Of a stretch of DNA of 64,000 nt, positions 7,828 to 53,495 are shown piece after piece. Within the stretch, counting starts at the first letter, position 1, and the number at the start of each line of letters is the position of its first letter. The stretch is from the sequence record NC_048170.1; one strand, 5' to 3'. The translations under genes were made by a program, and so were the position numbers. The notes below the pieces were generated by a model that saw nothing but the letters and a program-made list of their open reading frames with translations, had not been told where the DNA came from and ran no database searches. Origin of the DNA: Escherichia phage vB_EcoM_Goslar.

Positions 7828-9624
7828 TCAATCGATTATGTCGCGATCGTTAATTTCTACAATTTCTTCATCGAATCGACCGACGTCTTTCTTCAAGCCT
7901 GCATTGGTTGCTGCAACGTCATTTGCAATTTGTGGGGTAATGATTAACCGACCGCGCTCATCGATAGGTGCGTACATACTGAACTTCTGACGTCCGGTTG
8001 GTTCGGAGTGTGGAAGATTCAGATAGCTTGCACAGAACGGGATGGAACCACTAACCAAACGACTCTCGTCAGCCAATGCAGCACCGCCTGCGTTTTGGCT
8101 CTGGAGAACAACATGCGTGCTCACTTTGAACAGCATGCAATCACCAGGTGACTGAATCGATGTTGCCACTTTCTCACGTTTATCACGATTGCTCTGGATA
8201 TTGAGAATCGCTTCCGTTGCAACTTGATTTCGCAACGCCTTCTGTACATCGCGATTGGTCATCTCTTTACGGTTGTTCTGTCGTTTACCACGTTCTGTGG
8301 TTTTAAGATGGAACCCCAGTTTAAAGATGCTCTTACGCACATCCTCCATGACATATTCCAACACCATCAATTCCTTACCGAACATCGTCGTGGTATCAAC
8401 ACGACTCATTTCGATAGTGACATTGTCAATCAGATACGCCATAAATTCGTAGAAGTCGTCGCAAGGAATATTTTCCTGTTTGAACTTCTTCTGTTGAATC
8501 TCGTCAACGTAAAGATCGAGACTGTCGATGTGGTGGTTTACATCACGCAACAAACGCGCATCCGCATTGTTGTTATTAAAGATAATCAAACCGAGTAATG
8601 TACGCCAATGGTCTGGCGCATTCGCGAACTCCTCAACCGGATAGTCTTCCGGAAAACGATCGTAATAACGGTCGATGAGATACAAGAATGCACCGACAAG
8701 GCCAAGAACAATACGTTCCGTGCCTCCACGTCTTACAGCAATTTGAATATCAGGATGTTTGTAACGTACAGCGCTAGCGCTACGGCTTTTACCGCTTTTG
8801 CTGATACTAAAGCCTTTAGGAATAACCCCCATGGTGCGATAGATTACCCATTGGTCACGCGGAAAATCACGTTCAGCAAGGTTCCGTCCGGTTACGGCTT
8901 CGACACCTGCAAAACGTCGGAAACACTCACCCACCCCGTACTTCGCAAAGAGATAGTGACCCAGTGTGGTTACGCTGGTGTGGTTGATGTTGTCACCGTT
9001 CACTTTACTTTGTTTAGTAAGATGATAGATTTGCGACCAGGGTAATGACAGGTAATGACGATAATCGATACCGGTCGGTGTATCATTGCTCAGGAACTGA
9101 TACGGTGTACGTTTAACCGTGATTTTGTCACGCGGAAGCATGATGAACGCCATGTCTTTCGTGTAACTGATTACGGGGTCAGCGAGTACCGCACTGAGAA
9201 TGAAGTTCGCACCACGTAGACGCATTTTACCACCCTGACCTACCGCGGGCAATAGGAGAGGATGTCGGATAATGCAGTAGTCCTTTCCTGGTTCACGACG
9301 GTCACCTGATTCCATCGCGCCGTACCAGCGGAATTCCAGCATCACCATAAACACATCGGAAGGCGCAAGGTCGAAGGTCAGCTTACCGCTATCCTTCCCT
9401 TTGGTTTTCTTTCCTCCGCTTAAGTAGTGGAACTGTTCGCGGGCCATACAACGACGCAGGCCATGATACACCAGATCCTTAGGTAAACTATCTTTGCTGT
9501 TCCGCCAAAGACGATCAACATAGGACTCAACATCTTGCATCTTATCGACGACGATGTTGCGTGCTATCTTCTCGTTCATCTTCGGTGCAAGCTCAGCGAC
9601 AGCTTTGCAGAATCTAGGATCCAT
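7828..9624 (-). CDS. hypothetical protein (about 598 aa)
   Basis: ORF track frame; track start 9627 is GTG, adjacent ATG at 9624 has AAGGAG 6 nt upstream. Confidence 0.8.
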   Translation of the reverse strand: MDPRFCKAVAELAPKMNEKIARNIVVDKMQDVESYVDRLWRNSKDSLPKDLVYHGLRRCMAREQFHYLSGGKKTKGKDSGKLTFDLAPSDVFMVMLEFRWYGAMESGDRREPGKDYCIIRHPLLLPAVGQGGKMRLRGANFILSAVLADPVISYTKDMAFIMLPRDKITVKRTPYQFLSNDTPTGIDYRHYLSLPWSQIYHLTKQSKVNGDNINHTSVTTLGHYLFAKYGVGECFRRFAGVEAVTGRNLAERDFPRDQWVIYRTMGVIPKGFSISKSGKSRSASAVRYKHPDIQIAVRRGGTERIVLGLVGAFLYLIDRYYDRFPEDYPVEEFANAPDHWRTLLGLIIFNNNNADARLLRDVNHHIDSLDLYVDEIQQKKFKQENIPCDDFYEFMAYLIDNVTIEMSRVDTTTMFGKELMVLEYVMEDVRKSIFKLGFHLKTTERGKRQNNRKEMTNRDVQKALRNQVATEAILNIQSNRDKREKVATSIQSPGDCMLFKVSTHVVLQSQNAGGAALADESRLVSGSIPFCASYLNLPHSEPTGRQKFSMYAPIDERGRLIITPQIANDVAATNAGLKKDVGRFDEEIVEINDRDIID

Positions 9625-9663
9625 CACACACTCCTTTCAGAAAGTTGCTTAAGCAGATTAAAG

Positions 9664-23116: not shown

Positions 23117-26100
23117 TTACTTGTAGGCACCGCAATGTGCTTTGATGAGGAAAAGCACCGCTTGCATCGGTTTATTGAACTGTTGCCATAACGTCAATGC
23201 AGGATGGAACAACCAATCTTCCAGGCCAAGAACAATACCGTAGTTAACGACATTATTAACATCGTTCTCAACGTTGAGTTCGCTGTCCAGGAATTTATCG
23301 ATTGAACGCAGGGTCTGCATGGCGTTGTCAGCAATAAGCCAAGCTTCATGTGCTTCACGAGCCGCACGCAGCACTGCCTCCAGTTCGCTGATAGTAGCTA
23401 CCGGTAATTCCTCACTGGTGAGGTCGTCAGAAACCGTAAACTGGCGATTGATACCGGTGTAGATCCACTGCATCAGTTTCGCTGCTTCCTCGTTCGGGTT
23501 GTTGCGCGTTGTCGCATAAGTCGCGCTCACCTTCACGATGTGCGTTTCACCAAGATACGCTTTGGACCCAACACCTTTACGATCGCTGTCTTTCCACGGT
23601 TGTACGGTAGCGACCATGAGCTTATCCCATTTCTGAATAGGAATACGCTTCAGACCAACAACCGATCCGGCGGATGTTTCGGACTGGTTGCTCTTCCGCA
23701 CTTCGCTGAGCTCACGATCGATAGCAACGATTAATTCACGCGTCATGTTACCGAGCATTTTGATTTCACCCAACGCAGCGATGAGCTTCTTCACATCGGT
23801 AACAGGTTCACCACCGATGGTAAGATGACGGATGAAACGTTTCAGAATAATCCGTTCCGCTGCTGGATTACCGCGACGCGCTTTGGCCAGCGCTTGCTGT
23901 GTTTCGGCGAACAGCTTATCCCATGGAGCCGTAGCGGCGGTATAGTAACGGTGGTTGGTTTCAATCCAGTTACCGATACGGTTGACCGCGCTCTTAACGG
24001 TATCCATGAATCCTTCCATCGCAATTTCGGTAGCTTCCACGTTACCCTGGAAGTTATCAGGACCGATCTCGCGTGCCGCTACCAGAATACCTTCCACCGC
24101 ACTCACCGCATGACGACCGATAGCCAGATTTCGCTGCGCTTCTTCAGCACGCTCAACGAATTCCACTACCGCAGGATCGTCGACGATTTCCGCCTCGGCA
24201 ACAGCACGCGTACCCGCATCACCTTCCAGCGTTTCGATGGTGACAACCGGATCGTTTTCACCGGCAACATCCTGGTACTCTTCCTGTTTGAGATCGCCGT
24301 TATCAGCCGCTGCGACAGCGGTGAGTATACGGACGGTAACATCACCGAGTTCTTTTGCAGTGAATCCGTAGACGGTGCATGCTGTTGTCGCAAAGTTCAT
24401 CAGTGTGCGTGTGCGTTTAACGATGTAGCCAACATCATAATCGCTACCGCTCTTATCGATGTCACGGATTAACCGTTCAGCTGTCTCCTGAAGTTGTGTA
24501 GCTGCTTTCAGAAGGTCTTCGTCAAACAGTTTCGTTGACGCATCGATCAGCATATCAACGCTAACGTTAGACGGTACAGCATCATCCTGCTGTTTCATGG
24601 CGCTAAGTTCGTCACGGAACTTACGAATACCGTCTAAAGCGGCGTCAGCGGTATGTCCGAACGCAGCCACGCCTGACATTGTTGTTGCCGTCAGCATGTC
24701 TGAATCTGCGTTTGGACTTTCGCCTTCTTTAAGATTCTTCAACTGGTCGAAGAACTTACGAGATGCTTCAGCGATACGTTTACTGTCTTTGACCGCGTTT
24801 ACGATCTTATCGACAGATTTAGCGTCGTTCGCGAGCAGAGTATCCAGTTTATTCCACTCAACGTCAACCTTCTTGGTATCGCTTGGTGGTGGAAGCAGTT
24901 TCATCACTGGCGTTGTACGTTGTTCTTTGGTGAGCTTATCGGCCTTCTCATCGATTTTCTTTTTACTAACACCGAAGAGTTTTCTTAGGCGTGCCACGAT
25001 TGCTTTTAAGAACTTCGCGACCGCTTCGTAAACCGATTTCAGAATCTGTTTAAAGCGACCTGGCTGCTTTTCCCCGTCTTCCAGATTGAGATCGCTATTC
25101 AGTGCGACATCAAGCTGTTTGTACGATTCCATGATGTATTCGTCTTTGATTTCAGGACGAATCTCGAAGCTTTCCATCGGACCTTCAGCCGGACGGAATT
25201 CCATTTTCAGTTCGCCTTGCAGGGTAGGGTCGATAATAGCGATAGCTTCACCCTGACCATCAGCGTTAAAGCGTTCAGCGTAACGAGTACGGCGAACAAT
25301 AACACTCTTATCCCCATCAAGACGACGTACCACCATGGTGCCAGGAATGTACGGTTGTTCTGTTTCAATGACGGTTACATCTGCTTCACCTTCGCCGAGA
25401 ATAACCGATGCGCGCTGTTCAACAACAGGAACATCTAATACGCCACGGGCTTCCAGCTCTTGACGAATTTCGAACGACTCTTGTTTCAGATCTTCATCTT
25501 CTTCGTTTTCGTCGTCTTCATCATCGTCACCTTTGGTGTTTTCATTACCCTCGGTGGTTGTGGTGTTTGTAGCAGCAGCGTCGGCGTCTGTGTTGGTAGG
25601 TTCTTCGGACGCAGGTTCGGTGGTGCCGTCCTCGGCAGGCGTTTCGTCAGCGTTATCGACGTCAACATCACCTTGCAGCTCCGTTTCTTGAGCAACTGCT
25701 TCGGCTTTCTGCTCGCCGGTATTACCATCATTAGCGTCGACAACAGGTTGTTCGTCAGCGACGGTATCTTCAACCTTTTCTACTTTCTCCACGACACGTT
25801 TAATCACGGTGACTTTGATGGGTTCTTCCGTTGTTTTGGTTTCTGGCGTCACCTCGGCTGCCGCAGCCGCTGTTTCAGCAACAGGTTCTGCTTTTTCCGG
25901 TTCGACGACATTACCTTTAACACCTTCGGTGGTTTCTGCAGGTTGCGCTGCCTGTTCGATTTGCGCCGGATTGGTTGGATCGATGGCGTTAGCCGCATCC
26001 TGAATCTTGTTCTTCAGGTTGTCGCGGTCAGCGTTAACGGTCGGGTCGTTGGTCACTTTCGGTGCCGGTGTTTCGGTCGGCGCGTTTGCCGGATACGGGT

Positions 26101-26494
26101 TCTTCGGCTCCTCGCCAGGTGCGGTCGGTACCGCGATCAGAACGAACGGCTGAACGTCGTTACCGTCTTCCATGGTTACGCCGCCGTTGCTTGGCGTGAA
26201 ACGGATTCGCAAACTACCATCGATAGGACGGGTCACAATAACAGCACGTACGACATCCTCGCCGTTTTCATCTGTGCTACGAATCACGCGAACAGCGTCA
26301 TCAACGGTAGCCCCTTCCTCGAGCGTATCTGATTCGATCGTCGCTTCGATGCTGTCTGGCCGTGCCGCTGTAGGTAATGCGATCACTTGCTCTTCTTTAT
26401 CAGTAGAAAGCGTTGCTTTGACTTCGATAGGTGTATCGCCGCTTTCCAGGTTAAGATGCGACTTACGCATCAGATCAGCTAACGATTTTTTCAT
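23117..26494 (-). CDS. large virion protein (1125 aa) with acidic low-complexity region and internal ESF-helix motif
   Basis: ORF track; ATG with AAGAGGAA upstream; E/D/T-rich segment; MESFEIRP...ESYKQLD...KFLKAIV resembles the paralog-family motif. Confidence 0.85.
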   Translation of the reverse strand: MKKSLADLMRKSHLNLESGDTPIEVKATLSTDKEEQVIALPTAARPDSIEATIESDTLEEGATVDDAVRVIRSTDENGEDVVRAVIVTRPIDGSLRIRFTPSNGGVTMEDGNDVQPFVLIAVPTAPGEEPKNPYPANAPTETPAPKVTNDPTVNADRDNLKNKIQDAANAIDPTNPAQIEQAAQPAETTEGVKGNVVEPEKAEPVAETAAAAAEVTPETKTTEEPIKVTVIKRVVEKVEKVEDTVADEQPVVDANDGNTGEQKAEAVAQETELQGDVDVDNADETPAEDGTTEPASEEPTNTDADAAATNTTTTEGNENTKGDDDEDDENEEDEDLKQESFEIRQELEARGVLDVPVVEQRASVILGEGEADVTVIETEQPYIPGTMVVRRLDGDKSVIVRRTRYAERFNADGQGEAIAIIDPTLQGELKMEFRPAEGPMESFEIRPEIKDEYIMESYKQLDVALNSDLNLEDGEKQPGRFKQILKSVYEAVAKFLKAIVARLRKLFGVSKKKIDEKADKLTKEQRTTPVMKLLPPPSDTKKVDVEWNKLDTLLANDAKSVDKIVNAVKDSKRIAEASRKFFDQLKNLKEGESPNADSDMLTATTMSGVAAFGHTADAALDGIRKFRDELSAMKQQDDAVPSNVSVDMLIDASTKLFDEDLLKAATQLQETAERLIRDIDKSGSDYDVGYIVKRTRTLMNFATTACTVYGFTAKELGDVTVRILTAVAAADNGDLKQEEYQDVAGENDPVVTIETLEGDAGTRAVAEAEIVDDPAVVEFVERAEEAQRNLAIGRHAVSAVEGILVAAREIGPDNFQGNVEATEIAMEGFMDTVKSAVNRIGNWIETNHRYYTAATAPWDKLFAETQQALAKARRGNPAAERIILKRFIRHLTIGGEPVTDVKKLIAALGEIKMLGNMTRELIVAIDRELSEVRKSNQSETSAGSVVGLKRIPIQKWDKLMVATVQPWKDSDRKGVGSKAYLGETHIVKVSATYATTRNNPNEEAAKLMQWIYTGINRQFTVSDDLTSEELPVATISELEAVLRAAREAHEAWLIADNAMQTLRSIDKFLDSELNVENDVNNVVNYGIVLGLEDWLFHPALTLWQQFNKPMQAVLFLIKAHCGAYK

Positions 26495-40030: not shown

Positions 40031-42823
40031 TTATCTTACGTTATTGCTATTCTGCTGTTCGCTGAACCAGCCATACACCTTGAGATCGGTACCGTATTTC
40101 AATGCGATATACGCATTCAGCGCAGCGCAGAACAAAGACGCGAATGCCCATATCAGCGAAGGATCGACGTCTTCCGTTACCACTGGGAGAGTATTATCCG
40201 GTTCCCATGATGGTGAACTGTCCATGAACGTCGCGTACCATCCCCGCCGTTGTTCTTCGGTGGTAAAGTCGCTATGGGGTTCCAATGCTTCTTTTGCCAG
40301 ACGTCGATATTCGAACATATGCGTTGCTAAAGCCGATGAGTTACCAGATTCGCCCTCATAGTTCGGATCCACCGCATAACAGAGTTCTGTTGAATCTAAC
40401 AAAGCAACCGCCTGTGTGATGCTGTCGGCAGTGCCTGCACCATAGAGCTCGATAGACCGCGAAAGCTTTTCACAGAACGCATTTAACGCGGAAGGATTGG
40501 ACACCTGAAGGTCAAGGCCTAATGTCCACGGATAGTTACTGAATACACCCGTAAACCGTGGCATAACACCCAACAGATGCTGTCCGATTACGGCACGGTT
40601 ATAAACAGCCCTGTTATAGACTTGAAGCGCGGCCTCCAGGGCTTGGTTATAATGACGACGAAGCTCGTCACGAGAGTTGCGGAACCTGTTTGCCGCAAGA
40701 CTTGTGGCTGCGACGCTACAAACATCGTAATTGGTGGACGAGAGCACAACCTCGTTAAGATCGAACGCTTCCTGTTTCAATGTTCCGCTAACAGCCGCTG
40801 CTTCGCTGTTCGCTTTATCGACAACTGTACTCAAAGCGTTAATATAACGTTTAGCTCGGACCTCCAACCATTGTGCGATACCGAGAATATCCACCGCAGC
40901 TTTAGCAAGATCACGTGCATTCACGATTTCGTTCTTCAATGCCCCTAAACCTTTATTTTCAGGCGATGAGGCTTGTTGACGAATCATGCTGTTCAACATG
41001 GTAAGCAGATTATCCAACTCATGTCCGCTGACCTTGTTACGTGCATCGGTAATCGGCCCTTGCAGGAATTTACGGCAACCGTCGTTGTATCGAATCAGTT
41101 TATCCACATCGATAGATTCGTTCGTGGATTCCTTGAACTGATCCTTCAATTCTTCACGGTAATCATGGATTTCACTTGCGAGATTATCGATAGTGATACC
41201 ATCATGTCCAAGAAGAACTTTATTGAAGTTACCTTTCTCGAATGCAAGAGTAAGACCTTCACGAATCTTAGCGAGTTTGTCCTGATCAAGTTCACGACCG
41301 TTCGATAGCTCTTTCACTTCCGAGCTGATTAATGCCGAAACGTTACCCAGATTGTCGGTAACCCCTTTGAACGCTCCCGACCAGATCGTTCCTGCTTCAG
41401 CATATTTCGCAATGGTCTGAATACCGACGGTATGTAACGATGCTAAGCGTTTCTTCGTGCCTTCGGTAAGCAGTGCGTCTTTAGCTCGCGTAAGCTGACT
41501 GTTATTAGCTTCCGCCTGCTGAATCGCTGCTTTCGCACTTCCATTACGCCAGCTCTTAACCAGCCAATCAACCAAACGTTTTAGGATATTGACGGTGTAT
41601 TCCATTGTCCGCCGTAACGTTTCCCACGCGCTTTCTGCGGTATAGATGCCGTACCCTTCCATCTTCGTTGGGTCAAAGAAACCTTCCTGCACGAGATCGG
41701 TACGTGTGTAGCCATCAGCAGCTTCTACTTCCGCCTGGGTTTTATCCCAGAAGTCGTCGCTCTTTGCAGCAATCGCTGTATCTTTAACGTCCAGGATGAT
41801 CTGACCAACCGTTTGTGCAAACAGCAAGGCTGCACGTACCGATTGTGCGAACATCCGCTGATATTTGATTCGAACGCATTGCATCTGGGTTAGCAGATTC
41901 AGTTGTGCGATCCCATCCAAGGTGCTATCCTGAGCAAGTCCTTCGGCTTTAGCGATAACCTGTTTTACACGTTCAGCGACATCACCGTACTGCTGGCAAA
42001 CATCCCGCAGAATACGTGCCGCGAAGACCCCGGTACCGATATAGTTCAATAGGTCTTTTAACGACCATTCGGTCGGACAATCGGTCGGCGCAATAGGGAG
42101 TAAGCAACCATCACCGTCCATGAATCTCTCTAATGCGCTAATATCCTGATTTTCTACGCTCATGGGGATATCGACATCAGCCGCTTGCAGATCCAGCATC
42201 TGTTGTAGGATGTTGGTATCGGCTTGTACAAGCGTCGCAAGCGCTTGGCTGTGTGCGATTATTGGTAACGCAGGTGACCATACTGCAGCAAGCTTGTCGG
42301 CGTGACGTTGAATGGCATACCCCATATCCTCGATCACATCGGGATGCTCGATAACCCCCTGAAGCGTTTGATGTAGCTCACCGAGTTGCTGAGACAGATC
42401 GACCATCATGGTGTTGAAGGTTTCGTCATCCTCTTTGTGGTTGTCCAGACGCTCGAGTTCATGTCGAAGCAATGTAACGAGCTGTCCGTTGCCTTCTTGC
42501 TTCAGCTTGCTTTCCATTAACGTAATGGCTTTATCGACGATCTGACACGCTTCACGAAAACCGGTTGTGGAAGGAAGCTCTGTCCATAACGCCAGCGGTT
42601 TACCGTCAAGGGCTTCCGGCATCGATAACGAAAGCATAGACAGTTGTTGACGTGATACTTGCTGTTCACGGTGTAATGTTTCTTTTAACGCCAGGAGATC
42701 GTCAAGAAACGCGCCGTTAAGGGTGGTCGTACGTGGTGTTGAATTAATACCGTCAGTTAACGATTCAAGCACCAGGAGACCGTTATCAGCTGAAGAGAGT
42801 CCCGCGGCAAGATATTTGTTCAT
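40031..42823 (-). CDS. large hypothetical virion protein (930 aa)
   Basis: ORF track; ATG with GGAG 7 nt upstream; internal LVQEGFF motif; hydrophobic C-terminal segment. Confidence 0.85.
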   Translation of the reverse strand: MNKYLAAGLSSADNGLLVLESLTDGINSTPRTTTLNGAFLDDLLALKETLHREQQVSRQQLSMLSLSMPEALDGKPLALWTELPSTTGFREACQIVDKAITLMESKLKQEGNGQLVTLLRHELERLDNHKEDDETFNTMMVDLSQQLGELHQTLQGVIEHPDVIEDMGYAIQRHADKLAAVWSPALPIIAHSQALATLVQADTNILQQMLDLQAADVDIPMSVENQDISALERFMDGDGCLLPIAPTDCPTEWSLKDLLNYIGTGVFAARILRDVCQQYGDVAERVKQVIAKAEGLAQDSTLDGIAQLNLLTQMQCVRIKYQRMFAQSVRAALLFAQTVGQIILDVKDTAIAAKSDDFWDKTQAEVEAADGYTRTDLVQEGFFDPTKMEGYGIYTAESAWETLRRTMEYTVNILKRLVDWLVKSWRNGSAKAAIQQAEANNSQLTRAKDALLTEGTKKRLASLHTVGIQTIAKYAEAGTIWSGAFKGVTDNLGNVSALISSEVKELSNGRELDQDKLAKIREGLTLAFEKGNFNKVLLGHDGITIDNLASEIHDYREELKDQFKESTNESIDVDKLIRYNDGCRKFLQGPITDARNKVSGHELDNLLTMLNSMIRQQASSPENKGLGALKNEIVNARDLAKAAVDILGIAQWLEVRAKRYINALSTVVDKANSEAAAVSGTLKQEAFDLNEVVLSSTNYDVCSVAATSLAANRFRNSRDELRRHYNQALEAALQVYNRAVYNRAVIGQHLLGVMPRFTGVFSNYPWTLGLDLQVSNPSALNAFCEKLSRSIELYGAGTADSITQAVALLDSTELCYAVDPNYEGESGNSSALATHMFEYRRLAKEALEPHSDFTTEEQRRGWYATFMDSSPSWEPDNTLPVVTEDVDPSLIWAFASLFCAALNAYIALKYGTDLKVYGWFSEQQNSNNVR

Positions 42824-42882: not shown

Positions 42883-45687
42883 TTAAGCTAATTTACCGAA
42901 ACCGGCTTTCTGCAGTTTCTCGTTGATGATTTTCGCTTCAGCGAAGACGTAATCGCGGTAGGCGGTCACTAACGCATCCACACGTGAACGCAAGGCTTCT
43001 TCGAAGCTATACCACGCAGCGATTTCACGAATCTGTGCGTTGATATAATCAACGGTTGAGCGAAGCTCGGTTGCGTTTTCCTGCGGGATGGCTTTCACCT
43101 GGCGAGCAACGTCATTTAAACGACGGAACTGTGTTTCGATTTCTTTAAACTTATTGTCGGCAAGTTTGCTGAATTCGTCACCAGAACGGGTAAATAACAG
43201 ATAGCTGTTGCCATCAAGTGCGGTCGCTAACTGCTGAAGTACGTTGGTGTCCGGATACACAGGAGTACCGCTTTGCAGTACCTTCTCACCGAATTCCGCG
43301 AAGTCCTTCGGTGGTAAGTGCGCAGACGTTGTCAACTCGTTGAAACGGAAAGTCAGCGAACTATCATACAACATCCGGTACGCTTCCATACCCTGCTTCA
43401 TGGTGCCAGCCAGGTTGGCCAGACGCGGAGCAATCTCACCCTCTTTAGCGCGTTTCTGGTCTTCTAACGCCCCTTCGAGTTCTTTACACTGGTCGTTCAG
43501 ATACACGATACGATCGGGACGCAGACGACGCATCTCACGAAGAATGGTATCCAGCTTACCTTCCTGGAAATAACCTAGCGTTAAAGACGTACACGCTTGC
43601 TGAAGACGATCGAACACCGGTAAGGTTACCATCTCCTTACGGATACCATCAACAATCGCAGAAACAGCCGAAAGTTTCTGTTCTGTCGTTAATGGAACAT
43701 CAGAGACCGACTTGCTGGGCGCACCAACAACGTTACGCATTGCGTCGGTATCCTCGGTTTTATCAACCTCTTTACGAACATGCTCATCAGGAACATAAAC
43801 GTTCGCATTACGTTTCGCCTGCTTGATGGCATCGTTGGCCGCTTTTTCGGTGGCTGCTACGCTATCGGCACGTTTCTTCAAGAGTTCAATAATCCAGAGC
43901 ACCAGACGACGAATCGCAGTATAGGCCGTCGTGATGATGACACCGATAACAGCCATCTTCATGATACCGAACGATTCCATGGTCGGCTCTAATGCCTGGT
44001 CTGGCATATAGCGTTCACGCAGCTCCAGATAGATCTGCTCATCCGGTTTGCTGATCTCGCCACGATGCGAAGTCCGATAGATGGCTTCGTCAATCTCAAC
44101 AAGATCTTTGCGTGCCTGACGGTCTGTTTCGGTCAAATAAGCGCAGCCGGATACGTCGTCTTCAAAACTTTCGAACTTAAAGAAATCGACAACCATCTTG
44201 GCAAGCGCCTCTTTCTTAGCAGGATCGAGTGTCTTCGCATCTTCTTTTTGCTTATCCATTTTTTCCTTGAATTTCTCTTTGTAGTCATTCAAGGGTTTTA
44301 CCGCTCTTGCTTTCAACGCGTTATAGATAGCTTTCCACTCATCGTTACGTTCGAGGACAATGAAATGGTTTTTGAGTTCGAAAGCGCGATAGCGTGCAAC
44401 GAGCTGTTCTACCTGAATATGAGCGAGTTGGATATCCATTAACCAACGCGACATCGCCGAGATCAAACGGCTATAAGCGAACAACGTTTGGTAGGTTAAC
44501 TTCATGTATGTTTCATACAGCTCAATATCGCCGCTCTGAATATTGGCTGTTGGATTCATTTCCTTTGTTGCCTTGAAGACCTGTTCTGCTTCTCTCAGCG
44601 TCTTTTCGAACTTAACGTCATTAAACGCAGTGAATGGTTCAGCCAACTCATGCATTTTATCGTGGAGTTCGCGGATCCAAGCTTCCTTGCTGTCGCGGAT
44701 GGTGTTTTCATCATGGAGCACGGTTTGATGTTTTCGTACCCATTCTTCCACGATATCAGCAGCGGAAACAATCGGAACGCGATCTGAAATGAGCGGGACG
44801 ATCGTGTGAAGCGCCCCGACACATTCTGGCGTGTCCCAGTGTTTCTGGAGTTCATCACGGAAACGGTTAATGTTTTCTAAGGTGGTACCTAAATCAAGGA
44901 AAGTGCCGCCATTATGACTCATCTGTGCAACCAGATCGGCAAATACCTTTTGTTTTTCGATGACAAAAGGAACCATCCGCATAAGCCATTCAGCAGTTGC
45001 TTTAGCCTTTTCTTTCAGGTTCTTATCGGCGATTTCTTTAAGGTTAATCGCGCTACCGTATCCTGCAAGTTCGTTGTAGACGTCGTTAACCGTCATCTCT
45101 TTATCCAACATTTCTTTGAAACGTGGATAATCTGCACCTAACGCGTCGATGACTTCTTGGATGATGTCGTCTGTGGTAGCGATAAATTTATTTGTGCCGC
45201 CGTAATGGTTCCAGATTTTCTGTAGCGTCTTCTTAAAGAATTCGAAGACGAATGTCCAGATACGCTTAATGAGTTCCCAGACTTTCTTCGCACCATCGAC
45301 AAACAGTTTAGAGACTTTGGCAACGAATCCTTCCTGCACCAACTCAACGCCGTTACGTGATGGAATTTCGGTGAAGAAAGCATCTGGCAGTTGTTTCGGG
45401 AACGCGTCACCAAGACGCATACGCAATTCGGGTACATCGGCACGAGAAATACCGCGCGTCGTTAACTGCTCGTGAAGACGAACGTTTTCTTCACCAGAGG
45501 CTACGAATTCGTTAACGTCAAATGACACCAGTTCTTGATCTTCGGTGGTGACGACGCTTGAACCATCACTGGTTTGGATGTCTTCGTCAGGGAATGCCAT
45601 GAGCATACCGTGACGCATTTCAACCACTCCGTAATCGGTTGCTAAACCGAATTCGTTGTGATCGGGGGTAATAACTGGGATACTCAT
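42883..45687 (-). CDS. large virion protein (934 aa) carrying the paralog-family N-terminal motif
   Basis: ORF track; ATG; VELVQEGFVAKVSKLFVDGAKKVWELIKRIW aligns with VVEGFKDTVVKAMKKIWDII of gene 30350..31666. Confidence 0.85.
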   Translation of the reverse strand: MSIPVITPDHNEFGLATDYGVVEMRHGMLMAFPDEDIQTSDGSSVVTTEDQELVSFDVNEFVASGEENVRLHEQLTTRGISRADVPELRMRLGDAFPKQLPDAFFTEIPSRNGVELVQEGFVAKVSKLFVDGAKKVWELIKRIWTFVFEFFKKTLQKIWNHYGGTNKFIATTDDIIQEVIDALGADYPRFKEMLDKEMTVNDVYNELAGYGSAINLKEIADKNLKEKAKATAEWLMRMVPFVIEKQKVFADLVAQMSHNGGTFLDLGTTLENINRFRDELQKHWDTPECVGALHTIVPLISDRVPIVSAADIVEEWVRKHQTVLHDENTIRDSKEAWIRELHDKMHELAEPFTAFNDVKFEKTLREAEQVFKATKEMNPTANIQSGDIELYETYMKLTYQTLFAYSRLISAMSRWLMDIQLAHIQVEQLVARYRAFELKNHFIVLERNDEWKAIYNALKARAVKPLNDYKEKFKEKMDKQKEDAKTLDPAKKEALAKMVVDFFKFESFEDDVSGCAYLTETDRQARKDLVEIDEAIYRTSHRGEISKPDEQIYLELRERYMPDQALEPTMESFGIMKMAVIGVIITTAYTAIRRLVLWIIELLKKRADSVAATEKAANDAIKQAKRNANVYVPDEHVRKEVDKTEDTDAMRNVVGAPSKSVSDVPLTTEQKLSAVSAIVDGIRKEMVTLPVFDRLQQACTSLTLGYFQEGKLDTILREMRRLRPDRIVYLNDQCKELEGALEDQKRAKEGEIAPRLANLAGTMKQGMEAYRMLYDSSLTFRFNELTTSAHLPPKDFAEFGEKVLQSGTPVYPDTNVLQQLATALDGNSYLLFTRSGDEFSKLADNKFKEIETQFRRLNDVARQVKAIPQENATELRSTVDYINAQIREIAAWYSFEEALRSRVDALVTAYRDYVFAEAKIINEKLQKAGFGKLA

Positions 45688-47689: not shown

Positions 47690-49189
47690 ATGAGCGAACA
47701 AGAACGAAAACCTAAGAAGAAACTGCTCGGTATTCAATGTCGACACATCAGCTATAACGAAGCGAACGATGGCAGCAAGAACGACCTCATGATCGCAAAA
47801 GAGATCATGTTCTTTGATGATAATACGCAAGCGACGAACCTTCGCTTCTTTGAGAATTACAAACGTCCGTTTTGGGTGACAGTAGAGAGTAAACGTAAGA
47901 ACAAATATAAAAAGGAAAGCGAGAAGCTGTCACATGTGCGACGCTACGATGTCCGTCAAAGTGAACTGGTTGAAAAGATCAGTTCGGTGCTTTATAAAAG
48001 ACGTGCCGATGATAACACCCGTTTACAGCAGCTTGCACGGAGTCCATACCTCTATGGAACGGACGTTAGCGCCAGCTGTTATTTAAAAACCCAATACAAT
48101 ACAAAATGGCCGGAATACGTCGATAAATTACCCGCTTCTATCGCCTGTTTCGATATCGAAACTGACGTTGTCCATGGACACGGTAAGATCGTCTGTATGT
48201 CTATTACAATGGGATACAATGCGATACTTTGCTATACCAAGGACTTCGTTGGTCATATTCCGAATGCGATTGAGAAAACTCATGAGAAGATTCGATATTA
48301 TCTGGCCGAACGTCTGAATACCAAAGAAGATCCTCACGCGTTCGAAAAATATCATTACGATGTGCGAATCGTAGAAAGTCCGGCACAAGCGGTCATCCAA
48401 TGCATGCAAAAGGTTCACGAATGGCAGCCGGATTATCTCCTCGGCTGGAATATCGCGTTCGATATTCCGCGCATGCTCCAGGCACTGAACGAGGAAGGGT
48501 ATCGTCCCGAGGATGTTTTCTCCGATCCTCGTGTACCACCTAAATATCGTATTGCTCGCTGGGTACCACCGAAGACCGACAAGGTATCTGCTTCAGGTCG
48601 TAAAACCAACCTTACCCTCGAGCAGACCTGGCCGATGTTTTATACGATGGCTACGTATCAGGTTATGGATGCGATGTGTGGCTATAAGTTCGTTCGTTTA
48701 GGAAGACCGGATGAAGGACGCTATTCACTCGATGCGGTATTAGAGCGAAATAAATGCCATACGAAATTAAAAGCGATTCCTGGTACAGAAGGGTTCACGG
48801 AGCTTGCGTGGCACGAAGAAATGCAAACGAACCATCAAATCGACTACGGCGTATATAACCTTTGGGATAACCAAGGCATCGAGGCGTTGGACCAGAAAAC
48901 AAAAGACTATTCGATGACCATCCCTATCCGTTTAGCGGCGTCGGATTTGAAAGATTTCAGTTCTAACCCTAAACGTATCTGCGATAAACTTTTCTTCGTT
49001 TATCTTAACCGTGGGGAAGTCATGGGATGCACCGCCGACGACATGACCCAGGAAGAAGATAAGTGGGTTATCTCACGAACCGGACATATCGTCACATTAC
49101 CATGCGATCTCATGGCGGACAACGGCATTCATCTCTTCTGGGATATGCCTAATTTAAGGAGCTATATTCGATTATTTGTTGCGGATTAA
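47690..49189 (+). CDS. DEDD-type 3'-5' exonuclease-like protein (499 aa); possible exonuclease part of a split family-B DNA polymerase; probable exon 1
   Basis: ORF track; motifs ACFDIETD, GWNIAFDIPRM, YGVYNLWD in canonical Exo I/II/III order; no polymerase motifs; followed by HNH ORF and intron-like core. Confidence 0.65.
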   Translation: MSEQERKPKKKLLGIQCRHISYNEANDGSKNDLMIAKEIMFFDDNTQATNLRFFENYKRPFWVTVESKRKNKYKKESEKLSHVRRYDVRQSELVEKISSVLYKRRADDNTRLQQLARSPYLYGTDVSASCYLKTQYNTKWPEYVDKLPASIACFDIETDVVHGHGKIVCMSITMGYNAILCYTKDFVGHIPNAIEKTHEKIRYYLAERLNTKEDPHAFEKYHYDVRIVESPAQAVIQCMQKVHEWQPDYLLGWNIAFDIPRMLQALNEEGYRPEDVFSDPRVPPKYRIARWVPPKTDKVSASGRKTNLTLEQTWPMFYTMATYQVMDAMCGYKFVRLGRPDEGRYSLDAVLERNKCHTKLKAIPGTEGFTELAWHEEMQTNHQIDYGVYNLWDNQGIEALDQKTKDYSMTIPIRLAASDLKDFSSNPKRICDKLFFVYLNRGEVMGCTADDMTQEEDKWVISRTGHIVTLPCDLMADNGIHLFWDMPNLRSYIRLFVAD

Positions 49190-49257
49190 CCTTCGTTCTG
49201 TAAAAGTTTACTTCATGTAAGAATCGTGTGCGGCATAAGAGAGGCCGATACATCTAG

Positions 49258-50469
49258 ATGTTACATGAGGTTTACGAGATGGAAAAATCTATACATACTC
49301 AAACTGGAACTATTGACTATCGCGATTCAGCATATTTGCCGTACACAAATCATCGTTATCGTATATTTGAAGATGGCGAGTTGTACGACTATAAAGAAGA
49401 TAGGGTCGTCCCTTACGAAGTTGTAGACGGTGTCCCTTATGTTGAAATCGATTGGTATAGAGGCATTGGAAAATACGATCTCGGTATGATCATTCTCACC
49501 GTTCTTGAACGGGTTGCTTTACCAGATCACCTTTACGATGAAATTGAATCGTTGTTTGTGGACGGAGATCCGACTAACTTTTCGTATAGCAATCACATCT
49601 ACCGTTTCCGTAATGGGCCGTTAGAAGTTGAGGGATTCGAAGGTTATTGTTATATTCCGTTTGCATCTCGTTACGCGATAAATAAAGAAGGACATTGTAT
49701 TAGTCTTCTTTCGTTGGATCCTATCACGTGGACGAAAACGGTTCAGCAAGGCACACGTCTTGGCGGATACGCTTATCGTAAAGTGGTTCCCGACAGCGGG
49801 TTTACACCGCAGTTATATCGTCACCGAGCTATCATGTTAGCGTTTACGAGATATGATGCTAACGTTGTGAACTTAACTGTAAATCATAAAAACGGAATTA
49901 AAGGTGACGATTGGTTTGACAACCTCGAATGGGCGACATATGCCGAGAACAATCAACATGCTCGTATGGCAGGGTTGTGTATAGGTACGTCAAAACCTGT
50001 TTTGGTTTATGATTACCGTGCACGAATCGAACGTCGTTTTAATAGTATCGCAGAAGCGGAACGTGCTTATCCGTACGTGCCGAAAGGACGTTTCAAATGG
50101 TGGGTAAACAATCCTCCGAAACGTATCCCAGAATGCGATTTATACATCAAGTTTGCCACGGACAATACGCCTTGGCCGGAGTGGAAACTTGGAGAAGATC
50201 GTCGTGTCGAGGACACCGACGGTCGCGGTATTCTCGCTATTAATAAAGAGACGAACGAACGACATGTGTTTCCATCAGTAACTGCTGCCGCAAATGCGTT
50301 AGGAATCTCCTGGATTACCGTAAGACGTCATTGCGATCGTCGTGCAGTACCTACGAAACAGCCTTGGTGTTTTCGTTACGCTGATGATATCGCTGCCATG
50401 CCTGATTTCGATGTTAATAAATTAGTTCCTAAGAAGAAGCGTGTATTTAATGTCCCATTAGAACGATAA
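49258..50469 (+). CDS. HNH homing endonuclease (403 aa)
   Basis: ORF track; motif TVNHKNGIKGDDWFDNLEWATYAENNQH (His-Asn-His) plus NALGISWITVRRH helix-turn-helix-like segment; alternative ATG at 49279 has GAGG upstream. Confidence 0.8.
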   Translation: MLHEVYEMEKSIHTQTGTIDYRDSAYLPYTNHRYRIFEDGELYDYKEDRVVPYEVVDGVPYVEIDWYRGIGKYDLGMIILTVLERVALPDHLYDEIESLFVDGDPTNFSYSNHIYRFRNGPLEVEGFEGYCYIPFASRYAINKEGHCISLLSLDPITWTKTVQQGTRLGGYAYRKVVPDSGFTPQLYRHRAIMLAFTRYDANVVNLTVNHKNGIKGDDWFDNLEWATYAENNQHARMAGLCIGTSKPVLVYDYRARIERRFNSIAEAERAYPYVPKGRFKWWVNNPPKRIPECDLYIKFATDNTPWPEWKLGEDRRVEDTDGRGILAINKETNERHVFPSVTAAANALGISWITVRRHCDRRAVPTKQPWCFRYADDIAAMPDFDVNKLVPKKKRVFNVPLER

Positions 50470-50945
50470 CAGGTCCCCCTACTTGTAATGAGTGGGTGAA
50501 CTCTCTTTAATTGCTGGAAACCTTTAATGCCCCTCCACACCACAACGCAATCCGAAAGGGTAAACGTGATGGTTGTCGAAAGACAGAAAAAAGTTGGAGG
50601 GGATTACCTATGTTGCAATAAAAGCCACCGCTTTCTTGGATAACGAAAGATGACGGTGGTACTAAGGGTAGAAGATAGAAATAAGGTAACCGTAGCAGCG
50701 AAGACCCTACGGACTGTCGTGACCGACTCGATGAGTTGGCGTGGTTAACACGGACAGGCTACGGGTAACGTTCAACGACCATCCGGTTGCGCGGAGTAGG
50801 AGAATTAGGATGTTCTCTGAAAAGGGAGAAGTCGGTCGAGGTGTTGTAGAAACACCATTCGGTTTGCTAACGCAAACCTAAGGCAGGCTAAGATATGGTC
50901 TATTTTTCGTTGTGTTCATGTATAGAAATTACTGAACCATCGTAA
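50470..50945 (+). ncRNA. group I intron catalytic core (candidate), 3' part of an intron carrying the HNH ORF
   Basis: P-like aattgctggaaacc 50509..50522, R-like gttcaacgacca 50770..50781, S-like aagatatggtct 50890..50901 in canonical order; R/S pairing GACCA/UGGUC is compensatory relative to canonical GACUA/UAGUC; region is ORF-free. Confidence 0.5.
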
Positions 50946-51203
50946 GAGCTCGATATATCTTCAAGCTATCCAAATGGGCAGATACTGCTCAATCTATCCA
51001 GAGCATGTGTTTTTCGTGAGCTCTCACGCATTGAGGGCGTCTCTGACTATCAATTCAGGAAGCTAGGTATCAACTTTATCACTGGAGGTAAAACGAACGC
51101 TGTAGACTTCTGTAGAATCGTTTATAAAGCGCCATCGATGTTTGAACTTTTAGAACATTTCGATGCGACGCGTCCAAAAGAGGAAGCGCGGACCATCGAA
51201 TGA
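50946..51203 (+). other. candidate 3' exon: start-less open frame ending at TGA 51201..51203
   Basis: Frame open 50946..51200, protein-like translation (..ACVFRELSRIEGVSDYQFRKLGINFITGGKTNAVDFCRIVYKAPSMFELLEHFDATRPKEEARTIE), followed by hairpin terminator 51251..51282; splice site not determined. Confidence 0.3.
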
Positions 51204-51288: not shown

Positions 51289-51774
51289 TTATGCGCGTTC
51301 GTTGCCAACCGTTACTTTGTAGTCAGCGTCGGTTAAGAAAATAGACAGGAATCCATGTTCTTTGCAAATCTTACTAAGGATGTCAGCAATGATTTCGTTG
51401 ATCATCGGCTTGTTTGCAAGGGCATAGATGTACCCGGGTGTAAAAGAAAGTGCGTGATTGATCATAGGCTCATGAGAAGCCAAGATAAGGATCACGTGAT
51501 GCTTCCCATCGTCGGTAACGACCGCTTGCGTAGACACGAAGAAATCAGTGAAGCAGCAGCGATCACAGGCTTTAGGTATATACAAGTCACCCAGAGCTTC
51601 GTCACGTGCTTTTACGTGTGTTTCAGGGGTAATGCTGCTAAGTTGATCTTCAGCGAGATCCAAGACATCCTCAATCGTTTTAAGAATAGCGTTGCGGAAA
51701 TCCTCACGGTAGAATGGGATGATATCACGATCGTTCATGTAATCGCCGGATTCGATAGTAAAGTTGATGTTCAT
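51289..51774 (-). CDS. small hypothetical protein (161 aa)
   Basis: ORF track; ATG with AGGAG 6 nt upstream. Confidence 0.65.
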   Translation of the reverse strand: MNINFTIESGDYMNDRDIIPFYREDFRNAILKTIEDVLDLAEDQLSSITPETHVKARDEALGDLYIPKACDRCCFTDFFVSTQAVVTDDGKHHVILILASHEPMINHALSFTPGYIYALANKPMINEIIADILSKICKEHGFLSIFLTDADYKVTVGNERA

Positions 51775-51884
51775 TGAATGCTCCTAGTGGTTATGTCGAT
51801 TGATTGATGTGTTAATTTATGTTTGATGGGGTATACTTGAAACTACAAATAAGGCTCTTGGCGTTGCTGTTATGGTTCAGTTCT

Positions 51885-52423: not shown

Positions 52424-52909
52424 TCAACCAGAGATGTTGCACGTTTCTTCTTCGTCGAGTGCGTACTCCATTGTGTAGAATTCATAACCATCGGAAAACT
52501 TGAGTGTTACTGTAATAGGGAAATCGCACGGCATAGCTGATTTCTTAAATGCGTTATTAGCAACATCAGCCAACCGACGTATAGCATCAGTCCCGCTGAC
52601 ACTGAATGGTAGTTGTATGTTGATAAGGATGCGGTGCTTGTAAACATAGAAAACAACGGTGCTGTCAAGATAAACGCTATGGAACGGTATTGTTGGGATG
52701 CGTTCCACGATGGTAAAATACGTCCCATCAATATCACTATTTCCCACTGACCACTTATCGGATTTGCGTAGATTTTCTTTGAGGAATTCGACGCTTCGAG
52801 TGACAGCCTCAGTAGTAGGTGCGACGTATGCGTCTTTATGCGTGTCGAAAAGTTCGTTGACGTTAGATTTGAATGAATACGCTGTTGCCATTTTGATAAC
52901 ACCGGTCAT
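52424..52909 (-). CDS. small hypothetical protein (161 aa), tandem paralog
   Basis: ORF track; C-terminal FPITVTLKFSDGYEFYTMEYALDEEE resembles C-terminus of gene 52952..53443. Confidence 0.65.
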   Translation of the reverse strand: MTGVIKMATAYSFKSNVNELFDTHKDAYVAPTTEAVTRSVEFLKENLRKSDKWSVGNSDIDGTYFTIVERIPTIPFHSVYLDSTVVFYVYKHRILINIQLPFSVSGTDAIRRLADVANNAFKKSAMPCDFPITVTLKFSDGYEFYTMEYALDEEETCNISG

Positions 52910-52951: not shown

Positions 52952-53443
52952 TTAGCTATCGATCTCGCCATCTTCAGGATGGTAGTGGAATTCGAATAGC
53001 CCTGAACCATCGTGCCCGCTGATTGTTAATGTAACAGGCATATCGAATCCTCGTACGCGTTTATGAAAACACTCCGCTAACTTACGTTCAGCGTAATCTA
53101 CTATTTCATCGGTTGCTTCGACGCCACCTGTTACGCTGAGCGTGATATCGATACTAATGATGTTATCATGCAACGCAAACCGCCAACGATCGATACGATT
53201 ATTATCTTCAGCAGGCGTCTCGTTTACAAGATAGATTTTATCGTCAGCTGACAAAGCGGGACTCCAGCAACGTTCGTTTATTAATTTCGCCTGGAGTTTT
53301 AGTATCGTCTGATCAATAATATCCCAACACGTAACCAGCGTGACGTCAGGCACTGAATTGAGAAGGGCGAGCACTTTATCCTTTATTTTAAGTGCTTCCG
53401 CAGGACGCCCGCAAATACCATGCATTTCAACTTTCTTATCCAT
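52952..53443 (-). CDS. small hypothetical protein (about 163 aa), tandem paralog
   Basis: ORF track frame; track start is GTG, ATG at 53443; C-terminal MPVTLTISGHDGSGLFEFHYHPEDGE. Confidence 0.65.
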   Translation of the reverse strand: MDKKVEMHGICGRPAEALKIKDKVLALLNSVPDVTLVTCWDIIDQTILKLQAKLINERCWSPALSADDKIYLVNETPAEDNNRIDRWRFALHDNIISIDITLSVTGGVEATDEIVDYAERKLAECFHKRVRGFDMPVTLTISGHDGSGLFEFHYHPEDGEIDS

Positions 53444-53495
53444 ATTCACTTCTTCACTTCTTTCTTAATCTAAATGTTAGTTGGGGATGGGATGC

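Follow-up and report, generated by a model that had tools for sequence, protein, structure and literature searches.

A predicted mobile group I intron with an HNH endonuclease gene in motif A of the DNA polymerase gene of Escherichia phage vB_EcoM_Goslar

Introduction

Group I introns that bear HNH endonuclease genes are a familiar feature of phage polymerase genes in general (PMC11878797), and among the chimalliviruses, too, HNH-bearing introns are well known (PMC11620839). Here we describe positions 49187-50948 of a 64,000-nt stretch of Escherichia phage vB_EcoM_Goslar (NC_048170.1), which very probably constitute a functional, mobile group I intron in the essential DNA polymerase gene of a Goslar-type chimallivirus. 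The whole stretch is referred to as the window, and all coordinates without another label are positions in it. Because the basis is at the level of sequence, we infer splicing and endonuclease activity, and likewise the competitive role discussed below, from sequence.

The introns of the Bacillus phages SPO1 and SP82 (I-HmuI, I-HmuII) and Bastille (I-BasI) resemble the Goslar element in three respects: an IA-type intron sits at a highly conserved site of a replicative polymerase gene, the endonuclease combines an HNH domain with a NUMOD/helix-turn-helix architecture, and different introns occur at nearby positions in related phages. They differ in that the interrupted polymerase is of family A, whereas that of Goslar, a jumbo phage of a Gram-negative host, is of family B, and in that their open reading frames (ORFs) lie in a 3' peripheral loop, whereas the Goslar ORF is looped out of helix P1. 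The td, nrdB and sunY introns of phage T4 (subgroup IA2) have the consensus GUUCAACGAC(U/C)A at J6/7-P7 and AAGAUAU(A/G)GUCU at J8/7-P7', and their ORFs, located in P6 or P9 loops within genes of nucleotide metabolism, encode GIY-YIG or HNH-like proteins. Shared with the window are this consensus, the helices P7.1 and P7.2, which come after P7 and ahead of the 3' strand of P3, an in-frame stop codon just past the 5' splice site, and an intron ORF start that is (in the window, by predicted folding) sequestered in a hairpin.

Within the same virus family, the virion RNA polymerase gene gp210 of phage PhiPA3 contains a group I intron with an HNH gene beside the catalytic aspartates of an essential polymerase (PMC11620839). 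The kind of element is the same, and the target is an RNA polymerase there and a DNA polymerase here. The window HNH protein is 26-29% identical to the HNH proteins of PhiPA3 gp210 and phiKZ gp72/gp179, and core segments are 76-94% identical to those of the corresponding introns over 32-90 nt; we take phiKZ gp72 and gp179 to contain HNH introns partly on the strength of this HNH and core-sequence homology.

The same gene is interrupted in the Pseudomonas phage HPP-Temi (PP968062), the only one among deposited phage genomes to show an intron in the polymerase gene. The order of exon 1, HNH ORF, core and exon 2 is that of Goslar, as are the GGAU/GUCC pairing of P1 and the presence of a P1 extension; the HNH protein is 31% identical, and the core scores 59.2 bits with the Rfam model used below. 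The insertion, however, lies 6 nt downstream (ADLD|IVSTYP, compared with AD|LDISSSYP in the window). The HPP-Temi record annotates two 'DNA polymerase' coding sequences and an HNH gene, and no intron. Literature searches, of incomplete coverage, returned no paper describing an intron within the gene for the DNA polymerase of Goslar or the phiKZ group, and the original Goslar paper mentions no intron.

Results

Two reading frames encode one polymerase

The 499-amino acid (aa) ORF at 47690-49189 contains the DEDD exonuclease motifs FDIETD, WNIAFD and YNLWD. Their order is as stated in the original prediction, a note made from the letters of this locus and its ORF translations, and the motif residues (D155/E157, N254/D258 and Y389/D393) were found to be invariant in a family alignment of 66 sequences. 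In tblastn searches, this ORF matched the phiKZ-group 'DNA polymerase' gene in 289 phage records, at up to 38.7% identity. A downstream frame matched, in 280 phage records, the 72 C-terminal aa that directly adjoin this match in the same homologous gene; phage 124.01 is an example, with the two matches at 274277-275950 and 275948-276160. The downstream frame opens at 50946, only 3 nt 5' of the predicted splice site, and has no start codon or ribosome-binding site of its own. It had been noticed originally as a start-less frame that reads like protein, with conservation in related phages as a point to check. The 280 records, in which it is the contiguous C-terminus, bear this out, but the exon starts at 50949 and not at 50946.

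Conceptual splicing of U49186 to C50949 gives the protein sequence ...RLFVAD|LDISSSYPNG..., which is gapless against phiKZ-group homologues; those of phages SL2 (...HIADLDIVSTYPNV) and RSF1 (...HNADLDVKSSYPYG) align without a gap across the junction. No other junction both keeps the reading frame and places a U ahead of the 5' site and a G (50948) ahead of the 3' site. The conceptually spliced RNA reads ...TTGTTGCGGAT|CTCGATATATC at the junction (TTTGTTGCGGAT|CTCGATATATCTTC in DNA letters), and the tryptic peptide spanning it would be LFVADLDISSSYPNGQILLNLSR. The spliced product matched PHROG 3011 'DNA polymerase' over almost its full length (residues 8-576 of 583 on 5-570 of 576, E 4e-178). 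Furthermore, a protein search identified an uninterrupted allele, P0001, of 583 aa, that is 99% identical to the conceptual product and has the identical junction.

Residues D499, D501, Y506 and P507 are also invariant in the 66-sequence alignment; therefore, the intron lies inside motif A. The insertion falls between the codons of Asp499 and Leu500, two codons 5' of the invariant motif A aspartate D501, and exon 2 encodes D501, Y506 and P507 despite its lack of a start codon. The original view that the exonuclease gene is free of polymerase motifs has to be corrected, in that motif A (DxSSxYP) is encoded across and just past the intron. Judged by these alignments, the frames that flank 49186|50949 are two halves of one gene. 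A comparison with locus L005 (IMG/VR), which is 95% identical and contains the same intron, gave 58 synonymous and 1 non-synonymous codon changes in exon 1, 12 and 1 in exon 2, and 24 and 5 in the HNH ORF, which indicates that both exons and the HNH ORF are under purifying selection.

The interrupted gene encodes a family B enzyme

An AlphaFold model of P0001, made from 66 homologues, had a mean predicted local distance difference test score of 86, with high values to about residue 460 and low values at about 465-515. The top Foldseek matches of this model in the PDB were all family B polymerases (RB69/T4 gp43, Pol epsilon and E. coli Pol II; E 1e-12 over about 460 columns), in agreement with the original suggestion that the exonuclease could be one half of a split family B polymerase. 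The Pfam DNA_pol_B_exo1 match of the host polymerase was weak (E 0.008), and PDB sequence searches with the polymerase and the endonuclease were uninformative, and the fold search was required.

Motif A (D501-ISSSYP, DxSSxYP) is present, the protein ends 82 aa past it, and motifs B and C are absent from the 583-aa product. Polymerases of group 1 jumbo phages have been described as divergent family B enzymes with the exonuclease as a separate protein (Iyer et al., PMC7824862). The structural model supports the interpretation that the window gene is part of a family B polymerase split over several genes. A partner gene with motifs B and C was not evident within the 64-kb window. The minus-strand gene 7828-9627, which matches a PHROG named 'polymerase', was considered as the second half and rejected; it encodes the non-virion RNA polymerase beta subunit.

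The insert contains a group I intron core

As shown in Table 1, the features of the locus are arranged as exon 1, an intron with an endonuclease ORF, and exon 2. The Rfam group I intron model RF00028 matched 50405-50923 on the plus strand with 44.7 bits (E 1.5e-9 in a search of 2.4 kb and 3.9e-8 in 64 kb), and this was the only match in the window. The interval between the endonuclease ORF and the exon-2 frame comprises 480 ORF-free nt. In it, the P-, R- and S-like elements recognized originally are present and fall on the matching segments of the Rfam model: aattgctggaaacc at 50509 on J3/4-P4-P5, gttcaacgacca at 50770 on J6/7-P7, and aagatatggtct at 50890 on J8/7-P7'.

Table 1. Predicted features of the interrupted polymerase locus
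Feature	Positions	Strand	Details	Basis
Exon 1, phiKZ-type family B DNA polymerase gene	47690..49186	+	N-terminal domain, 3'-5' exonuclease motifs ExoI-III, palm start; 3' end ...GCG GAU (Ala-Asp499)	tblastn, colinear homologues, fold match to RB69 gp43
P1 5' strand and P1 extension 5' strand	49183..49199	+	Exon GGAU 49183-49186 and intron U49187; UCGUUCU 49193-49199
Group I intron	49187..50948	+	1762 nt; opens with in-frame UAA, closes with omega-G 50948
HNH/NUMOD1 endonuclease ORF	49279..50469	+	396 aa; GAGG 8 nt 5' of AUG 49279
P1 extension 3' strand, stop codon, guide	50460..50476	+	AGAACGA 50460-50466; UAA 50467-50469; AGGUCC 50471-50476
P2 hairpin	50478..50496	+	CCUACUU/GAGUGGG	RNAfold
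Catalytic core P3-P9	50501..50937	+		Rfam alignment, helix table, sub-domain folds
P3	50501-08/50821-28	+
P4	50512-17/50690-97	+
P5	50521-50687	+	With 160-nt extension
P6	50704-07/50763-66	+
P7	50777-81/50896-900	+
P7.1	50782-85/50792-95	+	UCCG/CGGA
P7.2	50800-04/50813-17	+	GAGAA/UUCUC
P8	50830-37/50882-89	+
P9	50914-18/50933-37	+
Exon 2	50949..51203	+	84 codons and TGA 51201-51203; starts CUC GAU AUA (Leu-Asp501-Ile); motif A LDISSSYPNG
GC-rich hairpin	51250..51283			Fold, dG -42.3 kcal/mol, z -5.1

Both P3 and P7, for whose pseudoknot the original prediction had asked, were located. Every sub-domain folds alone into the expected helices, and a helix-by-helix comparison showed that the sister introns keep the pairing with different but complementary sequences. 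MAFFT alignments of the core were good up to P7 and misaligned in the 3' half; the helices were checked singly. P7 is GACCA/UGGUC in the window and probably in L009, GACUA/UAGUC in five relatives, and GGCCA/UGGUC in L007, so that the compensatory change originally proposed from the window alone is seen among related introns. Relative to L005, the compensatory change C50629U/G50655A replaces C-G by U-A at one pair of the P5 extension, and the other changes are in loops or make wobble pairs. P2 hairpins of unrelated sequence occupy the same place in five other introns (L003, L004, L007, L008 and L010).

The P5 extension (50526-50682, about 160 nt), which is predicted to form a multi-branched fold with a GAAA-capped hairpin, has no counterpart in the sister introns of L004 and L008 and is the main cause of the low Rfam score.

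The criterion for subgroup IA2, the usual phage type, is a pair of extra hairpins, P7.1 and P7.2, that separate P7 from the 3' strand of P3. Counterparts of these two helices covary in L004, L008 and L007, and the intron looks like a member of this subgroup.

Exon nucleotides GGAU (49183-86) pair with the guide GUCC (50473-76), including the U49186.G50473 pair. The guide AGGUCC begins one nt past the UAA stop of the endonuclease ORF, and AGGUCC, AAGUCC or UAGUCC was found directly 5' of P2 in all seven related introns, with unrelated flanks. A second candidate guide, GUUCUGU (49196), located near the 5' splice site, was discarded because it lacks conservation and no P2 comes after it.

The P1 extension, UCGUUCU 49193-99 with AGAACGA 50460-66, closes the loop that holds the endonuclease ORF. 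Such an extension is present in all five ORF-bearing relatives, and the equivalents are of different sequence: 12 bp in L004 (0 of 2000 shuffles), 8 bp in L007, 6 bp in L009, and 7+7 bp in HPP-Temi. The 3' strand of the extension lies within the last codons of the ORF; therefore, translation of the ORF and splicing of one and the same molecule would be mutually exclusive. The architecture put forward in the original prediction, with exon 1, an intron bearing the ORF in a 5' peripheral loop, and exon 2, is in accord with the position of the ORF in the P1 loop and with the identical junction of P0001.

In the intron RNA 5' of the endonuclease start, 49205-49275 can form a hairpin in which AUG 49258 and the GAGG of AUG 49279 pair with 49210-49220. 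Such pairing could prevent translation of the endonuclease from the precursor in its folded state, a situation known from the ORFs of T4 introns.

The insert encodes a putative HNH endonuclease

ORF 49258..50469, starting at an in-frame AUG upstream of the one in Table 1, would encode 403 aa, and its earlier assignment as an HNH endonuclease is supported by a Pfam NUMOD1 match above the cut-off (29.6 bits, cut-off 22.8; residues 329-358, C-terminal to the nuclease) and by a match to PHROG 59 'HNH endonuclease' (E 3.5e-18), with the Pfam HNH_3 domain scoring slightly short of its cut-off (see Discussion). HNH_3, NUMOD1 and a weak helix-turn-helix were the only Pfam matches in the ORF of the insert. 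The H..N..N catalytic residues are present (NHKNG...DNLEW...ENNQH), and I-HmuI (1U3E) was the top, although weak, PDB sequence match. The PHROG 59 HNH family has been found in polymerase introns of the Bastillevirinae (PMC11878797). An exact look-up of the 403-aa ORF returned nothing, since gene-calling programs take AUG 49279 as the start.

Near-identical phages differ in their allele at the site

The locus of P0001, L006 (an ENA contig of 237 kb), lacks 49187-50948 and reads ...GTTGCAGACCTTGACATTAGCAGTTCATAC... at the site; it is 94.7% identical to the window in the 5' flank and about 90% in the first 3' block, and a search of it with RF00028 gave no match. The protein search was what recovered this allele, as a degenerate DNA pattern for the intronless junction had no match in viral contigs. 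A megablast search of the locus against the phage collection also gave no match.

In L004, the flanks are 90-96% identical to those of the window, and a different insert of 1.54 kb at the same codon replaces window positions 49189-50967. The HNH ORF of this insert is 41.5% identical in protein, and the core scores 70.4 bits and has a canonical P7. The spliced polymerase coding sequence of L004 differs by 3.4% from that of the window, and the encoded C-terminal region is identical. With L005, three states exist at one site among phages that are about 95% identical: the window and L005 have intron type A, L004 has type B, and L006 is intronless. Many contigs of 236-248 kb encode the polymerase in its 499-aa or its 583-aa form, and the two HNH types cluster as 51 and 133 sequences.

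The exon sequences next to the site are recoded. Compared with L006, the window differs at 6 of the 30 nt that end exon 1 and at 14 of the 30 nt that begin exon 2, in all cases synonymously, whereas about 1 nt in 30 differs elsewhere; between the two intron types (window and L004), the values are 0/30 and 10/30, respectively. Position -1 is C in the intronless allele and U, as needed for the U.G pair, in every intron-bearing allele. Such recoded flanks are what homing co-conversion, or selection for resistance to the phage's own endonuclease, would be expected to leave.

Many assemblies that bear the label of a Salmonella enterica or E. coli isolate contain Goslar-type contigs of 236-248 kb, which suggests that a lytic jumbo phage is carried in these cultures (a carrier state or contamination).

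Insertions cluster in motif A

Introns were also found at and near the site in other relatives. At the AD|LD site itself are an ORF-less intron of 372 nt in L008 (79.7 bits), a 2.4-kb intron with two ORFs in L007 (L007:5465-7898), and an HNH intron in L009, the contig of which ends in the core. At 6 nt downstream, introns are present in L010 (ORF-less) and in HPP-Temi, and L011 has one after ADLDV (37.9 bits). The bulk Rfam search (E <= 0.001) missed the introns of L007, L009 and L010, the core elements of which were visible by eye. The HNH proteins of the motif A introns are all homologous (26-41% identity), and many metagenomic homologues of the polymerase end at ...HVAD*, ...HVADLD* or ...ADLDV... 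Across uncultured relatives, introns occupy at least three different positions within a 9-nt stretch, and motif A of the polymerase family is, on these comparisons, an insertion hot spot.

Two of these loci have additional features. The ORFs of the L007 intron are an HNH gene of 435 aa in the P1 loop and a 215-aa ORF in the P5 loop, the product of which has N-terminal CxxC pairs and no Pfam match. In L011, downstream of the intron after ADLDV, copies of exon 2 at 5838-6032 and 7114-7296 flank a reverse-strand, apparently free-standing HNH gene at 6081-7043, an arrangement that resembles the outcome of a target duplication or of a nested invasion.

Surroundings of the polymerase gene

The GC-rich hairpin of Table 1 corresponds to the terminator-like hairpin that had been noted about 45 nt past the stop codon. 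It lies 46 nt past the polymerase stop, between the polymerase gene and a convergent minus-strand gene (51289-51774), and is probably a bidirectional terminator. A simple terminator scan did not call it because the U-tract is poor on the plus strand.

On the 3' side of the polymerase gene (window 51294-51861 compared with L006:5862-6817), a 161-aa minus-strand gene is replaced in L006 by unrelated genes of 149 and 169 aa; therefore, a variable cassette adjoins the homing site. Further downstream, the minus-strand ORFs 52424-52909 and 52952-53449, within a run of about eight small minus-strand ORFs, are adjacent weak paralogues (24% identity, E 2.5e-5). Elsewhere in the window, four very large minus-strand ORFs of 852-1125 aa (5235-7793, 23117-26494, 40031-42823 and 42883-45687) matched no PHROG at 1e-5; a weak and probably spurious Pfam Cas9_C_2 match (E 0.0017) was obtained for the first of them.

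Discussion

Several observations weigh against the interpretation of 49187-50948 as a functional, mobile group I intron. The check with the Rfam model that the original prediction called for did yield a match, but its 44.7 bits are less than the curated gathering score of 50 bits; the default search of the window, which applies this cut-off, returned nothing, and the match surfaces only with E-value reporting. The low score is due to the insert of about 160 nt in P5 together with long inserts in P6 and P8. P1 consists of 4 exon pairs and one wobble, with strands 1.28 kb apart, P10 is weak, with at most 2 bp, and the 7-bp P1 extension of the window is matched by 9% of shuffles and is convincing only together with the relatives. 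The HNH_3 score of the window's endonuclease, 23.3 bits, is 1.5 bits below the cut-off of 24.8. In favor of the intron interpretation, the Rfam cut-off is exceeded by sister introns located at this site or one adjacent to it (70.4, 79.7 and 59.2 bits), and the homologous endonucleases of L004 and L007, aligned at E 3e-98, have HNH_3 scores above the cut-off (32.7 and 35.8 bits, respectively).

The alternative that survives best is an intron that is real and no longer mobile, with an HNH protein that is inactive or re-used, for instance as a maturase or in DNA binding, such that the polymorphism records old events. The sub-threshold HNH_3 score, a record name that says only 'NUMOD1 domain protein', and the existence of ORF-less versions (L008, L010) are all compatible with this. 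Nevertheless, the H..N..N residues are present, the ORF shows an excess of synonymous changes relative to L005 (24 to 5), and phages about 95% identical exist in three allelic states with recoded flanks; we regard a loss of mobility as improbable.

We regard it as very improbable that the locus consists of a free-standing homing endonuclease next to a dead ribozyme relic, with a permanently split polymerase assembled from subunits of 499 and about 84 aa. The Rfam score under the gathering cut-off would fit, as would the multi-piece nature of the phiKZ-group polymerases (PMC7824862) and the apparently free-standing HNH gene beside a duplicated exon 2 in L011. However, exon 2 would have to be expressed with no start codon or ribosome-binding site, from a frame that opens 3 nt before the splice site; all core helices are intact and kept by compensatory changes; the U at -1 and the omega-G are exactly where in-frame ligation needs them; and the insert would break the chain two residues before the invariant catalytic aspartate. 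An intein or other protein-level element can be dismissed, even though motifs of family B polymerases are known to harbor inteins and the polymerase of another jumbo phage has been proposed to contain a split intein with an HNH domain (PMC6892783): an in-frame UAA (49187-49189) forms the first intron nucleotides, the exons are in different frames, the sole intein match (E = 0.52) came from the spliced polymerase and lies inside exon 1 (residues 386-465) and not in the insert, and the insert matches the RNA covariance model RF00028.

In the model that we favor, that of a functional mobile intron, the exon sequence GGAU of the pre-mRNA and the guide GUCC, 1.28 kb downstream, would pair, and the P1 extension helix would loop out the endonuclease ORF and aid this pairing. 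Exogenous guanosine would then attack after U49186, and the freed exon 1 would attack after G50948, restoring the reading frame. The HNH/NUMOD1 protein, with its I-HmuI-like architecture, would be translated from unspliced or excised RNA and would nick or cut, close to the ADLD codons, any polymerase allele without the intron that a co-infecting relative brings in. Repair from intron-plus copies of the genome would bring in the intron together with a short recoded exon flank.

A speculative and, in our judgment, doubtful extension of this model is that the Goslar-type phages of E. coli and Salmonella are engaged in a contest at one polymerase codon, with two intron/HNH lineages and an empty allele, in which the mutual exclusion of splicing and translation, together with the phage nucleus, sets the ratio of polymerase to endonuclease. 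If this were so, relatives present in the same infection and without the recoded flank that belongs to a given endonuclease would have their polymerase gene disabled by it. Interference of this kind was shown for PhiPA3 gp210, whereas for the Goslar intron it is a conjecture. Intron replacement and flank recoding would then be escape routes, and the separation of transcription from translation in a nucleus-forming phage would set the polymerase-to-endonuclease ratio.

By its predicted parts, the element belongs to a classic type of selfish DNA, the mobile group I intron that encodes an HNH homing endonuclease, and the host gene and insertion site are new for the virus family. The intron is apparently unannotated in Goslar. 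The deposited Goslar proteins are 100% identical to those predicted here (the exon-1 product is the 499-aa 'DNA polymerase', and the HNH protein, 396/396, is the 'NUMOD1 domain protein'). The deposited polymerase stops at exon 1 and therefore is 84 residues short at its C-terminus and without the invariant aspartate of motif A. For structural, proteomic and knock-down work on the Goslar polymerase, the spliced 583-aa product would be the right form, and a corrected annotation would be of practical value, as Goslar is a laboratory model for nucleus-forming phages. Moreover, the natural alleles (two intron-plus types and an intronless type) in E. coli-grown phages that are about 95% identical may provide a tractable system for homing, co-conversion and competition, set in a phage with its DNA inside a nucleus-like shell.

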